64,000 bases of DNA from an uncultured Chloroflexia bacterium. GTDB lineage: Bacteria; Chloroflexota; Limnocylindria; QHBO01. This document shows positions 12,001-24,000 of the stretch, piece after piece. The stretch is taken from contig CAWHAZ010000005.1 of assembly GCA_963827475.1 (NCBI GenBank), positions 244,259-308,258 on the forward strand, read 5' to 3'. Position numbers: made by a program. Positions within the stretch are counted from its first letter, which is position 1, and the number at the start of each line of letters is the position of its first letter.

Positions 12001-15000
12001 GGGCGCCGGGCCGGAGCCCGCGCAGGCACCCCCCGTCACGTGGCCCGAGATTGGCACCCTGGAAACCCGCGCCTCGCGCGCCGAGCGTGCCGCGGCCCAG
12101 GCGGACCTCGACCTGCCCGCCTACCCGACCACGACCATCGGCTCACTGCCCCAGACGTCCGACGTGCGACAGCTGCGCGTCAAGCTGGGCCGGGGGGAGA
12201 TCGACGAAGCCGCCTACGACGCCGAGATCACCCGGCTCATCCACCACGCCATCCGCTGGCAGGAGGAGATGGGCCTCGACGTCCTGGTCCACGGCGAGTT
12301 CGAGCGGACCGACATGGTCGAGTACTTCGCGGTCCAGATGGACGGCTACCACACCACCAAGGCCGGATGGGTGTCCTCGTACGGCAGCCGATGCACCCGC
12401 CCGCCCATCCTCGCGGCCCCGCCGACCATCAGCGAACCGATGACCGTCGCCGAGTGGCGGATCGCCCAGGACGCGACCGACAAGCCGGTCAAGGGCATGC
12501 TCACCGGCCCCGTCACCATCGTGAACTGGAGCTTCCGCCCGCCCGGCATCGACGACGACCGCCTGTTCTGGGCGGTGGCCCAGCCGATCGCCGAGGAGGT
12601 CCGCCACCTGGTCGACGCCGGAGCGCGGGTCATCCAGGTCGACGAGCCGGCGGTCCGAGAGCGCTGGCCCCTGCCCACCGCCGACGCCGAGACAAAGCGC
12701 GAGATCTACGCGCGGGGCGTGCGCGCCGCGCTGGACCATGTCTTCAACCAGCCGGCCGGGGTCCAGATGCACACCCACATGTGCTACGGGACCGATGCGT
12801 CGATCGCTGCGCTGTGGACCGACGTCGGCGTGGACGTGGCGTCCATCTGGTACGCCCGCTCGGTGGACGATGACCGGATCCGGGCCTTCTATGTCGGACC
12901 CTCGGACGGACATCTCCAGATCGGGCCGGGCCTGTTCGACGTCCACTCCCCGCACACCCCGGGAAGCGAGATCATGGACGAGCGACTCCGCCACTTCGAG
13001 GACTACATGGCGCCGTCCGACGTGTGGGCCAACCCCGACTGCGGGATGAAGACCCGGACCTGGGACGAGATCGAGCGCCAGCTGACCGACATGGTGGCGG
13101 CGGCCCGCCGCCGGCGGGCCGCCATCGGCTCCGAGCCCTGACCCGATGCTCTCCGAGCCCGATGGCTGGGTGGAGATGGTCGAGGTCAACCCGCCGAAGC
13201 TCCCGAACCTCACCCACCGACGCCTCGAGGGCCGCTGGCACGACGTCCTGATCACCGACAACCCGTTCAAGCAGGTCCGGATGTCGCCGTACGCGTTCGC
13301 CGCACGGATCACCCATGACGTCCCCGATGTGCGGCCGACCGTCGTCTGCTCGACCCGGGATCGGAACATCCTGGCCATCGAGAGCGAGGTCCGCGGGGCG
13401 CTGGTCAACGGCGTCGAGTCATTCCTCGTGGTCCAGGGTGATGTCCTGCCCGAGGTCGAGCACTGGAGCGACAGCTACGAGATCGTCGCCCACCTGCGCG
13501 CGCTGCAGGACACGGTGGCCCCGGTCCGGTTCGAGGTCGGGATGTCGACCCGGTCGCGGAAGTGGATGCTCGAGCGCCGGATCGAGGCCGGCGGGCAGTT
13601 CTTCACCACCGGCCCGCTCATGGATCCCGACGGGGTCGAGGCGGTAGCCGAGCGACTGGGGATCGGTGCGGGGAGTGACCGGCCTCCGATCTACCTCGAG
13701 CTCACCCCGCCGTTCTCCTCGGCCTGGATCCACCGCCTCGAGGGCGTGGGCGCGATCCCGGTCAGCGACGGCCTTCGCCGGCGACTGGAACGCGTGCCCG
13801 AGGAGGACCGGCGTCGCGAGGCGTGGCGCGTCGCGCGGGAAACGGCGTCCCGGGCCCGGGAGGTCGGGTTCTCCGGCGTGATCCTCATGGGCCTCCGTTT
13901 CGAGACGGTGGTCGGGGAGGCGCACGACATGTGGCACGCCACCGATACCGCCGAGGACGCGCTCACCCCCGCCGCGCGCTGATCCCGATCGGGCCATCGC
14001 GCGACCAGCGTCGGGTCACGGGCCTCTGGCATCCACCACGAGAAGCCAGCCGGGGGGGATCTCGATCGAGCAGGGTCCCCTTGTCATGTCAACGCACTCT
14101 GCGAACGGACCCCATTCAACCGCTGGCAGGCCGGCCAGTTGATAGTCCACCAGGATGCCGACGAGCAGCAAGACGCAGGTGAGCGCCAACAGGACTTTTC
14201 TGATTCTGTCGAGGGGCCACGACACGACCAGGCTCACATACAGGACAGCCTTTGGAATCAGGAAGAACCGTGCAGCAGCCATGGGCCAGAGGAGCATTTG
14301 CATGCTCGAGCCTGGCTGCGTCATCGCCCACAGGGCCAACAACCAGCCTCCGGCCAAAGACAAGAGCAGGGCGCCTATCTCCAAGGAGCGGCCACGGATC
14401 CAGATAAGCGCCAGCGCTGTCGTCAAGGCGATACTGAGGAACACCGCCAAGGCCCCCGGTGATCCCGGCGGCCATAGAGCCGCAAGGCCGCTTTCGCCAA
14501 GGGCGGCCGTCGCCATCACCCGCTTAGCCAGGATCAGCACCGCGACACCGGGGTCGGAGGCCACGTCTGCGATGCTCCCTCGACGGCTCGAGCTCATGAG
14601 GAAGCCAAGCTGCATTCCGATGCCCAGAAGGGCAAGTGCAAGCAGCGTGATCGAATGGCGAGATCTATTGCGAAGGGCGCGCAAGGCGAGGGCCGGGATG
14701 CCGAAGAGGGCGACGAATCCGGACGTCGCGGCCAAGGCGACATAACCGACCTCACCGAACTTGGCCCAGCCCCGGTGCGGATCGCGGAGCATGCCAAGGA
14801 GAACCAGCCCGACGCCCAGCCACCAATGGGCGTTGCTCAGCGTTGCGTAGGTTTCACCGACTCCGGGAGCGCAGAGCAGGGCCAGCATGCAAACGAACCT
14901 GGCCTGAATCGGAACCGGGTCCCGCCATCGCGACGAAAGCACGATCCCGCATGACAGGACTGCGAAGATGATCGCAACGGCCGCATACAGCGTTGGCTGA

Positions 15001-21000: not shown

Positions 21001-24000
21001 TTGACGCGTCCTTCGGCCAGGCATTTGTCATCGCATCGGTGGCCGTGATGGCAACCGCCATCCCGTCAGTGCCCGCCTACCTCGGGACCTTTGAACTCGC
21101 GTCCGTAGCCGCCGGCACGGCGCTCGGGCTGCCGCCGGAGGAGGTATTAGCCGTCGCTACCATCGCCCATGTGACAGTGATCGCAGTTGTCACCATCGCC
21201 GGTGCGACCTCAGCCATCCTGATTGGGTTCAGCTTCGGGAGCCGTTCCCGGATCGACGTCACCCTCCAACAACCTTCGGAGAGGGACCTTTCATGAACGA
21301 GCCGAGCCCAGTCGGTCCCGCAACCGAACTTTCACTGGTGCTCCCGGTCTACAACGAGGCCGAGAACATCGCGGGCGTCCTCCGCGCAGCGGCCACGCAG
21401 ATAACTGCCTCTCACGAGGTGCTCGTCGTGTACGACTTCGACAGTGACACGACGGTGCCCGTCGTTCAAGACCTCCTGCCATCCATGCCGGGTCTGAGAC
21501 TACTGAAGAACGAGTTGGGCCCGGGAGTCCTCAATGCCATGCGGGCTGGCATTGCGGAAGCCCGGTCGCCCTACGTCCTGATCACAATGGCCGATGGCTC
21601 CGACGATCTCACGGGCGTCGACGACATGATGCGGCTCGCTCGAAGCGGCGCCGACTTGGTGGCGGCAAGCAGATACATGGCGGGTGGACACCAGCAGGGT
21701 GGCCCCGCGGCCAAGCGGGTTCTCAGTCGATTGGCTGGCTTGACGCTGCACTGGTTCGGTGGCGTGCCAATCCATGACCCAACCAGCAACTTCAAGCTCT
21801 ACAGTCGCCGACTGCTAGAGTCCGTCACCATCCAAGCCACGGGTGGCTTCGAGATGGCGATTGAGCTGACTGTAAAGGCCACCCTGGGCGGGTACCGTCT
21901 GGCCGAGGTCCCGACCACCTGGCGCGATCGAACGGCTGGGACCAGCCGCTTCAAGTTTCGCGCCTGGCTCCCTTTGTACCTCCGGTGGTACGTCTTCCTC
22001 TACCGGGGTCGTGTTCGCCAGCTATTCAGGCAAGATCCGATCCCGAACTAGGTACAGGGCGGTGGGCTGACTTGGCCATGGCCGCTCAACTGCGGCGAAG
22101 CGTCACCACTACCTGCTCGTTAATTTTGGGGTCGTCGACGATCTCTTCAATCGCGAAACCCGACAGATTCGAGCGGAGCCAGCTTTCCGGGATCGCCGCC
22201 CACCCGTAGAAGTCGCCCGAGAGCACGCCGCCTCCTCCGATACCGGTGTAGACATGTTGGTCGTTGCGGAACTCGGAACGGGCGCGGAACGGGTCATCGA
22301 AAAACGAGTCGATTGTTTTCTCAGCTTCGGCCAATTGCTCCCGCTCTGCCTTAGCGCGGATTGCACAACAGAGCTCGAGGAACCTGAGGCCCTGCATCGT
22401 GAAACTCAGTTGACCGCCTGGGCGCAGTACGCGGGCGAGCTCCGAGAACGCGGCCCTCGCAGCATCGGCTGAGAGGTGCGAGAACACCGAGTACGCGTAC
22501 GCCAGCCCGAACGCCCCCTCCTGGAATGGCAGATTGCCCCCTGGATCGACTTGCTGCATTGATCCCGGCACGCGCGTGTCAGCACATACCTGTACGATCT
22601 CAGCATCGACATCGACGCCGAACAGGTGATGTTCAGGCACGTCGTGTGCAAAGAGCCGGATGAGCCGACCCCAGCCCACGCCAAAGTCAAGGACGAGGTC
22701 CATCGACAGGTCACCACGGTAGTGACGCTTGACCAACTGGTAAAAGGGGAAACATTCGCGCATCGCTGCGCCGCCAGACCATCCAACAAACCGGGCCTGA
22801 ACGTATGGAGCCGGGCCGCCCGGGACACCGTCTCGGCCGACCTCCAGACCTTCGATCATCAGTTCCAGCCATTCCTGGTCGGTGTAAGACTGGGAGTCGA
22901 TCATTCCAACCTCGCGGGTCCTTGGTCCAGGGGATGCATTCGGGGTCCGGATCTACGCCTCCTAGGGGGAGGGGATCGCCTCGGTCGGATGTCCCTACGA
23001 CATGCTAGCGGCGCGCCTCGCAACGCGGAACGACCCCGATGACCAGGTTCTCTCCTGCTTCTCATGTGCGGCGACGAGAAGCCACGCTTGCGCTGGAACC
23101 TTTCATCAGAAGGCCCAGGCTCCGGTCGCGAACCGAGCCGAGAACCACAGCAGGAGCCCCACCGACACGACGCCGATGGCGAGGCCAAGCCAGCGGCGCT
23201 CGGCGAGGATCGCGAACCACGCGTACAGCGGGAACATGACCAGCACGTAGCGCGGCACGGACAGCACGAAGGCGGTGCTGACGAACAGGAGCCAGTTCGC
23301 ACCCATCCACCACGCCCAGCTGGGGCGGAACCGCCGCACGGCCACCACCGTCCCGGCAAGCCCCAGCCCGATCGCCGCCAGCTCCGCCACGCCGAGCACG
23401 GCAGTGTCCTCGAGCGAATCGCTCGCCAGGCGCGACACGACCCCGGCGATGCCCTCCCACGGCCAGGCGAGCGTCTTGAACCAGTGCTCCCGCTGGATCT
23501 CGACGAATGCGAACGGGTTCCCGTACACGGCCTGGTTCAGCACGAGGTACCCGCCAAAGCCCACCACCACCAGCCCGATCCAGCCCCACGCCAGCCGGGG
23601 GCTCCTCGACTGCCGCCACTCGGCCCACGCCTCGGCGGCGAGGGCAGGGATCAGGACGAGGCCGTTGACCCGGGTCAGGGCGGCGAAGCCGCCGGCGACT
23701 CCGGCCGCTGCCCACCGGCTGCTGCGGGCCGCGAGGAACGCCCCCAGGACGAGGGCGAGGAACAGCGACTCGGTGTACCCGATGTGCAGGAAGTAGGCCG
23801 TCGGGAAGATCAGCAGGAAGATGGCCGCCCGGCGGCCGAGCTCCTCGCCCAGCTCCCGGGCCACGACCCGGTACAGCAGCAGGACGGCCGCGATCGAGGT
23901 GATGGTGCTGATCAGGATCGGCGCCGCCAGGTCGGGCACGACCGCGCGCGCCACGCCAATGAGGGCGGGGAGCAGGGGATAGAACACGATCATGAGGTCC

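Follow-up and report, generated by a model that had tools for sequence, protein, structure and literature searches.

A low-GC insertion between two convergent genes

The stretch of DNA analysed here (the window) is 64,000 nt long and comes from an uncultured bacterium of the class Limnocylindria, phylum Chloroflexota (assembly GCA_963827475.1, contig CAWHAZ010000005.1, positions 244,259 to 308,258 of the forward strand). At about 13985–23105 it carries an island of ~9.1 kb, lower in guanine plus cytosine (GC) than its surroundings, that lies between the stop codons of a methylenetetrahydrofolate reductase (MTHFR)-like gene and a native gene for a glycosyltransferase of the GT-C fold. The eight island genes encode, from left to right, two large polytopic membrane proteins (M430 and M646), a nucleotide-sugar dehydrogenase, an extended short-chain dehydrogenase/reductase (SDR), an S-adenosylmethionine (SAM)-dependent methyltransferase (MT1), a flippase-like membrane protein, a family 2 glycosyltransferase (GT2) and a second methyltransferase (MT2). 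An earlier note, made from the sequence alone, had read this region as a horizontally acquired, lipid-linked glycosylation island, and its map of open reading frames (ORFs) and their domains matches our ORF calling and our scans with Pfam and NCBIfam. The extent given here is based on comparison with empty sites in relatives and on GC, GC at third codon positions (GC3) and the codon adaptation index (CAI).

In 1-kb windows the GC fraction is 0.605–0.660 over positions 14001–23000 and 0.69–0.73 on both sides, and in 300-nt windows it drops at ~14000 and recovers at ~23150. The GC3 of the eight island ORFs is 0.70–0.76, compared with 0.93 for metE, 0.92 for the MTHFR-like gene, 0.94 for the right-hand GT-C gene and 0.83–0.96 for nearly all remaining genes of the window. 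With the 37 non-island genes of the window as the reference set, the CAI is 0.40–0.49 for all eight island genes, each below the host minimum of 0.557 (host mean 0.717, standard deviation 0.072); the two ranges do not overlap (Mann-Whitney p = 6e-6). Both the lower GC over about 9 kb and the atypical codon usage that had been noticed by eye are thus borne out quantitatively. Island genes overlap one another by 1, 37, 26 and 4 nt in the ORF map.

For the synteny comparison, one genome per species was scanned with the MTHFR-like protein, which gave 33 loci, nearly all of them from metagenome-assembled genomes of Candidatus Limnocylindria or other Chloroflexota; the host therefore belongs to this phylum and is no actinomycete. 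The island is missing from four close relatives, L001, L002, L004 and L005, whose MTHFR-like proteins are 93%, 92%, 84% and 84% identical, respectively, to that of the window; in these the opposite-strand GT-C gene directly follows the MTHFR-like gene, with only 3–27 nt separating the two stop codons. Because the two genes stand stop-to-stop in four close relatives, the block in the window is an insertion. Nucleotide comparison locates its ends: the empty site of L001 and L002 reads ...TGA TCG TCAGAAGGCCCAGG..., and the filled site reads ...TGATCC[CGATCGGG ... 9.1 kb ... CCTTTCA]TCAGAAGGCCCAGG..., where the outer brackets enclose the insert, which starts CGATCGG. No duplication longer than ~3 nt was found at these junctions when the window was compared with the two empty sites. 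The flanking gene order, metK(−)-metE-MTHFR-like followed by GT-C(−), a major facilitator superfamily (MFS) gene, a hypothetical gene and an ATP-binding cassette (ABC) gene, is kept without the island in L003, L004 and L005. Unrelated genes (for example serA, glnA or a cupredoxin/beta-helix protein gene) lie between the MTHFR-like and GT-C genes in the more distant L003, L007, L021, L023 and L030; we take this for normal drift in synteny, not for a sign that the site is an insertion hotspot.

A near-identical gene order (dehydrogenase, SDR, MT1, flippase-like gene, GT2 and, on the opposite strand, MT2) is present in L023, a distant genome whose MTHFR-like and MetE proteins are 67–68% identical to those of the window. 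The island DNA is 84.5% identical to that of L023 over 4.6 kb (80.5% for MT2), and the core DNA of the same two genomes is 72.9% identical in metE-metF, 73.5% in the GT-C gene and 77.8% in the MFS gene. An island identity of 84.5% beside a core identity of about 73% indicates lateral exchange. Low GC marks the cassette in L023 and L025 as well (0.60–0.65, compared with 0.69–0.72 in their flanks). Acquisition is therefore favoured over ancestral presence with repeated loss, since the block has a foreign composition, is absent from close relatives, and resembles the distant L023 more closely than the core genes do; the horizontal origin proposed in the earlier note stands on these observations of composition, codon usage, empty sites and excess identity to L023.

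A contig from another ENA assembly, L034 (ERZ25039469 contig_218580), covers positions 13968–24451 of the window and thus both junctions. It shows zero differences from the window over 13974–17616 (which takes in both island GT-C genes and 280 nt at the start of the dehydrogenase gene), ~84.5% identity with many indels over 17617–22046 (dehydrogenase to the GT2 stop codon), and ~98.6% identity over 22047–24451. A third allele of this sugar-donor operon, that of L023, is 82–84% identical to those of the window and of L034. The pattern suggests that the donor operon has been swapped by recombination within the island; either that, or the L034 mosaic is a mixed-strain consensus. The location of the module also differs among genomes: it is directly upstream of metE in three more distant Limnocylindria genomes, L023 (642–7457), L025/L038 and L033 (2060–4954), and downstream of the MTHFR-like gene in the window. 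Its linkage to the SAM-cycle genes metK, metE and MTHFR could stem from the way in which the loci were collected, or there could be a genuine connection with the SAM dependence of the two methyltransferases.

Predicted enzymes of the island

The dehydrogenase gene (17335–18621, + strand) encodes a nucleoside diphosphate (NDP)-sugar 6-dehydrogenase with the N-terminal, central and C-terminal UDPG_MGDP_dh domains of Pfam, and it matches TIGR03026 at 267 bits, above that model's cut-off. It had been called a UDP-sugar 6-dehydrogenase, and the enzyme class holds; its nearest NCBIfam equivalog models are UDP-N-acetylmannosamine (ManNAc) dehydrogenases, with every equivalog far below cut-off, and its nearest PDB entries are 4r16 and Cap5O, so by sequence it appears nearer to UDP-ManNAc or other N-acetylhexosamine (HexNAc)-type enzymes than to Ugd. 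The next gene (18621–19643, +) encodes an extended SDR of the NDP-sugar epimerase type (PF01370 Epimerase, 7e-40), whose YxxxK motif is YGFQK. The earlier note had left open an epimerase or a decarboxylase. The Epimerase domain is there, and in alignment the SSSMVF of the island protein pairs with STSEVY of human UXS1, placing a Met at the position of the decarboxylase Glu. Human UXS1 is among its PDB matches (E ~4e-23), and the 4-epimerases 4zrm, BcUGAepi (6zl6) and MoeE5 score equally well or better. We take the SDR, with low certainty, to be an epimerase, and a pentose product is less likely than an epimerised uronic acid because the Glu of UDP-glucuronate decarboxylases is lacking.

The presence of two SAM-dependent methyltransferase genes was upheld by Pfam matches. 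MT1 (19607–20308, +) is a class I enzyme matching PF13489 (Methyltransf_23) at 6e-14, and it accompanies the GT2 in related loci (L035–L039). MT2 (22086–22904, −), also class I (PF13649 and PF08241, Methyltransf_25/11), is convergent with the operon and is found as well in L023 (80% amino acid identity) and L038. Searches of PDB sequences returned generic matches only for both proteins.

The GT2 gene (21293–22051, +; PF00535 Glycos_transf_2) is of the DPM1/GtrB/ArnC type and encodes a predicted polyprenyl-phosphate sugar synthase. Its nearest PDB entry is the dolichol phosphate (Dol-P)-mannose synthase of Pyrococcus (DPMS 5mlz, 5e-15), followed by GtrB (5eke) and ArnC; the nearest NCBIfam models are those for a Dol-P-hexose transferase and AglJ, and its similarity to ArnC is weak (E 2e-5). 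No hydrophobic transmembrane (TM) segment was detected in it by a Kyte-Doolittle hydropathy scan, a crude guide to topology that does not settle TM counts, and we propose that the enzyme is soluble or peripheral. Judged by its family, it would supply the polyprenyl-phosphate-monosaccharide synthase that characterises multi-component glycosylation systems. Directly upstream, the gene at 20283–21296 (+) encodes an MprF-type, flippase-like membrane protein that matches PF03706 (LPG_synthase_TM) over its full length at 1e-43 and TIGR00374 at 78 bits, above cut-off. PF03706/TIGR00374 is the family of the MprF flippase domain, and the island protein is thus a candidate flippase for a polyprenyl-phosphate-linked sugar. 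It had no match in the PDB sequence search, and no protein of the island matched GtrA or Wzx/Polysacc_synt, so that the GtrA or Wzx flippase of other multi-component systems has no counterpart here.

The two large membrane proteins are encoded at the left of the island. M430 (14016–15308, −) has 430 amino acids; M646 (15360–17300, +) has 646 if translation starts at the TTG at 15360, or 623 if it starts at the GTG at 15429, as in public gene calls. Neither protein matches any Pfam or NCBIfam model. A word-indexed search found 56 homologues of M646 and 32 of M430, and no meaningful match to a Pfam GT-C family was seen among 52 M646-family and 32 M430-family members, the lone hit being GT87 at E 0.011. 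The described GT-C families compared were Pfam PMT, PMT_2, GT87, YfhO, Arabinose_trans and similar ones, and "unclassified" is used below in the sense of Pfam and NCBIfam. An exhaustive profile search showed the M646 family to be very large, with 9,564 cluster representatives (at 50% identity) at E ≤ 1e-3, of which 5,792 are full-length matches at E ≤ 1e-30; it spans Chloroflexota and Actinomycetota.

AlphaFold (AF2) models built from the family alignments, with pLDDT (predicted local distance difference test) values of 93.1 and 90.4, show that both large membrane proteins have the GT-C fold. The modelled proteins have a polytopic core whose first extracytoplasmic loop carries juxtamembrane helices, the hallmark of that fold. 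The best long structural matches of M646 are AftA, AftB, Pmt4 and ArnT; ArnT is a structural neighbour of both proteins, and Pmt4, AglB, STT3 and PglB are among the top neighbours. The ArnT-like architecture that had been guessed for M646 is therefore in keeping with the models. The two families are nonetheless unrelated when set against each other (hhalign probability 1%). GT-C enzymes hold their catalytic carboxylates in the loop after TM1, and in this loop D36 of M646 (in a GxDxSW motif) is invariant in 52 sequences, and the E60-D61-G62 motif of M430 is conserved in at least 90% of 32 sequences, making D36 and E60/D61 candidate catalytic residues. The C-terminus of M646 is a beta-rich soluble domain of ~230 amino acids with near-invariant cysteines and weak, local, lectin-like matches only; it could be a carbohydrate-binding module (CBM) like those of EmbC and the Citrobacter GT136 enzyme.

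Both families also occur fused to a GT2. Three metagenomic M430 homologues (P0072, P0074 and P0075) are GT2::M430 fusions, and in P0072 the first 245 residues match the full length of the island GT2 at 66% identity, the rest matching M430 at 55%. In P0182, also metagenomic, a member of the M646 family is fused to a GT2 that shares the subtype of the island GT2 (33% identity). Such fusions put donor synthase and transferase in one polypeptide, and the N-terminus of the GT-C part should therefore be cytoplasmic; together with the Arg/Lys-rich N-terminus, we infer from them the membrane side of the loop after TM1.

The combination of dehydrogenase, SDR, methyltransferase, GT2 and M646 recurs in other loci, including one of the actinomycete Plantactinospora solaniradicis. 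In L035, L038 and L039 the module is contiguous with genes for Wzm/Wzt (Wzt_C), RgpF, WbsX, Bac_transf, a DUF1972 GT4 and dTDP-rhamnose synthesis (Rml), a layout that is that of an ABC-transporter-dependent locus for a rhamnose-rich wall polysaccharide. From these neighbourhoods in relatives we suggest that the sugar may be transferred, outside the membrane, to a glycopolymer that the cell exports.

Taken together, we consider it probable (about 0.78) that the cassette was acquired laterally, was inserted exactly where two convergent native genes meet, between their stop codons, and encodes a self-contained multi-component system for extracytoplasmic glycosylation. In agreement with the earlier note, domain matches and GT-C folds account for all parts of a polyprenyl-phosphate-sugar route. 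In the cytoplasm an NDP-hexose or NDP-HexNAc would be oxidised at C6 by the dehydrogenase and then epimerised by the SDR, giving a nucleotide sugar of an epimerised uronic acid; the DPM1/GtrB/ArnC-type GT2 would load this sugar onto polyprenyl phosphate, and the MprF-type PF03706 protein would move the lipid-linked sugar to the outer leaflet. There M430 and M646 would transfer it to an extracytoplasmic acceptor, most likely a rhamnose-type wall polysaccharide exported by an ABC transporter. Having two GT-C enzymes could allow transfer to two positions or to two acceptors, or the successive addition of two sugars, and MT1 and MT2 might methylate the sugar or polymer, or cap the chain.

Relation to known systems and alternative explanations

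Three- and four-component systems in which a GT2 and a flippase work with a GT-C enzyme of divergent sequence add side chains to rhamnan outside the membrane (PMC9574508). Systems of this kind decorate rhamnose-rich wall polysaccharides as well as teichoic acids. The island shares with the Gtr/Csd/Gac systems (CsdAB/CflA of L. lactis, GacI/J/K/L of S. pyogenes, and Gtr of Shigella and Salmonella) the logic of a polyprenyl-phosphate-sugar GT-A/GT2 enzyme, a flippase and a divergent GT-C, and, like them, it encodes an integral-membrane GT-C protein together with the GT2, here by two genes. It differs from them in that its flippase candidate is MprF-type (PF03706) and not GtrA or Wzx, its two GT-C enzymes come from unrelated, unclassified families, its GT2 has no TM anchor, and its host belongs to the Chloroflexota; it also adds its own NDP-sugar dehydrogenase, epimerase and two methyltransferases.

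The Rgt system of Rhizobium combines a UDP-glucose dehydrogenase, the UDP-glucuronate 4-epimerase LpsL, the GT2 RgtE, which makes dodecaprenyl phosphate-galacturonic acid (Dod-P-GalA), and the GT-C enzymes RgtA-D. The order of chemistry proposed for the island is the same: dehydrogenase, SDR 4-epimerase, GT2 acting on polyprenyl phosphate, and GT-C transfer of a uronic acid. Unlike the wall polymer proposed here, the Rgt acceptor is the lipopolysaccharide core or lipid A, and Chloroflexota are generally regarded as monoderm. One M646 homologue, P0051, bears a UniRef name starting with 'Glycosyltransferase R'. Other differences are that M430 and M646 have no PMT_2 match, that the island dehydrogenase is not Ugd-like, and that the island adds methyltransferases and the PF03706 protein.

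The earlier note had also compared the island with the Arn pathway, which modifies lipid A with 4-amino-4-deoxy-L-arabinose (L-Ara4N; Ugd, ArnA, B, C, D, E/F and T). The general logic is indeed shared, for Arn as for Gtr, the GT2 is weakly ArnC-like, and ArnT is structurally near both GT-C proteins. However, no aminotransferase, formyltransferase, decarboxylase domain, deformylase or SMR flippase was found in the eight genes by Pfam and NCBIfam scans, and the SDR is without the decarboxylase Glu. The island is not an Arn pathway, because equivalents of ArnA, ArnB, ArnD and ArnE/F are absent. Like the Citrobacter ORF12-15 pentofuranose system, a three-component system with a GT136 enzyme (Kelly et al. 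2024, PMC11127046), the island as we propose it would decorate an ABC-exported glycan outside the cytoplasm after polymerisation. In both, the GT-C enzyme ends in a soluble domain (a CBM in Citrobacter), the flippase is from a family other than GtrA, and there is an auxiliary epimerase. In Citrobacter the donor is made from phosphoribosyl pyrophosphate (PRPP) via PPPRS, the flippase is a MATE protein and the epimerase acts on the lipid-linked sugar, whereas in the island a nucleotide sugar would enter via the GT2. The best analogy thus appears to be side-chain decoration of an ABC-exported, rhamnose-type wall polysaccharide, or a Rgt-type Dod-P-GalA route; modification of lipid A is a poorer fit.

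Several points weigh against our proposal. To our knowledge PF03706 proteins have not been shown experimentally to flip polyprenyl-phosphate-sugars, and our search of the literature on PF03706 or MprF-like flippases in polyprenyl-sugar systems found nothing specific. The dehydrogenase and SDR score below all equivalog cut-offs of NCBIfam, no acceptor polysaccharide cluster was found in the 64-kb window, and there is no target-site duplication, terminal repeat, integrase or tRNA target to account for the insertion.

The acceptor might also be of another kind, if the system O-glycosylated proteins that are secreted or form an S-layer, as PMT, Pgf or AglB systems do, or modified a membrane glycolipid. 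In favour of this are the missing polysaccharide cluster of the window and the presence of Pmt4, AglB, STT3 and PglB among the top structural neighbours. The Pgf system of S. mutans combines a GT2, an epimerase and two membrane proteins, a composition like that of the island, and the NCBIfam match to PgfS reaches only 35 bits. We nevertheless think a protein or glycolipid acceptor unlikely, since in three related loci the module directly adjoins a polysaccharide cluster with ABC-transporter, RgpF and Rml genes, and structural neighbours of GT-C enzymes do not predict the acceptor, AftA, AftB and ArnT scoring equally. The sugar itself could differ from the one proposed and be a pentose, as the earlier note had suggested: UDP-xylose is classically made by a dehydrogenase and then an SDR, and with human UXS1 among its best PDB matches the SDR could be a UXS- or ArnA-type UDP-glucuronate decarboxylase, the product being a lipid-linked and possibly methylated pentose (xylose or arabinose). 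The Met at the UXS catalytic Glu, the equal or better scores of the three 4-epimerases and a dehydrogenase nearer to HexNAc-type enzymes make this quite improbable in our view.

The history of the block can be read differently as well. Related modules beside metE in L023, L025 and L033 might mean that the linkage to met genes is old in the class and that an ancestor already had the block at this site, the relatives having lost it by deletion. Against this, four relatives have the identical clean stop-to-stop junction, the block keeps a foreign GC3 and CAI, it has a higher identity to a distant genome than the core genes have, and the module lies on the opposite side of metE-metF in the relatives that have it; we regard repeated deletion as very improbable. 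Still further from what the data suggest is a chimera of assembly or binning with DNA of a lower-GC organism. The source is a metagenome-assembled genome, and mixed strains could produce the mosaic pattern of L034, but L034 comes from another assembly and spans both junctions, which argues against a chimeric assembly, and it also takes in the native GT-C gene and the tRNA gene; in addition, a public gene call of M646 lies on a 1.07-Mb contig. We therefore give the chimera almost no weight.

A broader proposal, which we put forward tentatively and hold to be somewhat more doubtful than probable, is that M646 and M430 found two new GT-C families and that, with a TM-less GT2 and a PF03706 flippase, they would define a distinct and widespread type of extracytoplasmic glycosylation in Terrabacteria that would add methylated uronic acids as side chains to wall polymers resembling rhamnan. 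The system would pass between genomes as a cassette that recombines, because three alleles that are ~83% mutually identical occupy the donor operon between identical flanks. Hardly any work has been done on the cell-envelope glycans of Chloroflexota, and the uncultured Limnocylindria abound in soil and fresh water. The locus offers a clean natural case in which all the genes of a sugar-decoration pathway passed together from one lineage to another, and such transfer may follow pressure from phages or predation on surface structures. It also brings to light two GT-C families that current domain libraries miss; one is very large, and for both there are now confident models and candidate catalytic residues. 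The locus further lends genomic support to an MprF-type protein as a flippase of lipid-linked sugars. In this way a known mechanism is extended to new enzyme families and a new phylum, and current understanding is not overturned.

Flanking genes and other features of the window

The native left flank of the island is the MTHFR-like gene (13146–13982, +), which lies downstream of metK(−) and metE, has a GC3 of 0.918 and encodes a protein of 278 amino acids. It had been labelled metF; a relation to MTHFR is supported by a weak match to the MTHFR half of a bifunctional NCBIfam model, and its Pfam MTHFR score of 22 bits falls under the gathering score of 24, so the gene probably encodes a non-canonical MTHFR-like enzyme. 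It stands beside metE throughout the class, and a look-up of the exact protein gave no record. The native GT-C gene on the right (23106–24251, −), outside the island, has weak PMT_2 and GT87 matches. MT2 is co-directional with this gene and downstream of it, and could be transcribed by read-through from it. Between the two is a non-coding spacer of 201 nt (22905–23105), which forms the right end of the insert and in which no promoter-like or terminator-like site was found.

As the earlier note had stated, a tRNA-Pro gene (CGG anticodon; 24320–24396, +) lies to the right of the island, and no integrase or transposase domain is present among the island genes or flanks in Pfam and NCBIfam scans. 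The tRNA gene was the only feature found by an Rfam scan of the whole window. We considered it as an integration site and rejected it, because the native GT-C gene separates it from the island. Terminal inverted or direct repeats, promoters and terminators at the island did not rise above shuffled expectation. When the island is held against classical integrative elements, it has the atypical composition and patchy presence, and no mobility genes, att target or flanking repeats.

An exact 11-bp direct repeat at the edges of the island, ACGAGAAGCCA, had been put forward as a possible insertion scar. Its right copy is at 23074–23084 (+), as given, within the 201-nt spacer and 21 nt from the right junction; the left copy had been placed at 14027–14037 and is in fact at 14038–14048 (+), within the M430 coding sequence and 53 nt from the left junction. 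With both copies internal, we rejected the scar. The 11-mer is absent from the empty sites of the relatives, and its occurrence is compatible with chance: the window contains 3,361 distinct repeated 11-mers, and of control pairs of zones with the same spacing elsewhere in the window 3.9% have an exact 11-mer in common when ±100 nt is allowed, and 10% when ±150 nt is allowed.

Elsewhere in the window, positions 41000–45000 form a second, milder low-GC patch (GC 0.66–0.68), in which three small ORFs on the − strand (42320–42715, 43036–43707 and 43713–44132) have a GC3 of 0.69–0.72 and no Pfam match and adjoin an Exo_endo_phos protein gene; this patch may be another acquired segment. At 53227–55269 there is a gene for a fused CtaA (COX15) and UbiA/CtaB heme O/A synthase, upstream of the gene for cytochrome oxidase subunit I (58414–60096), an ordinary respiratory-chain context unrelated to the island.

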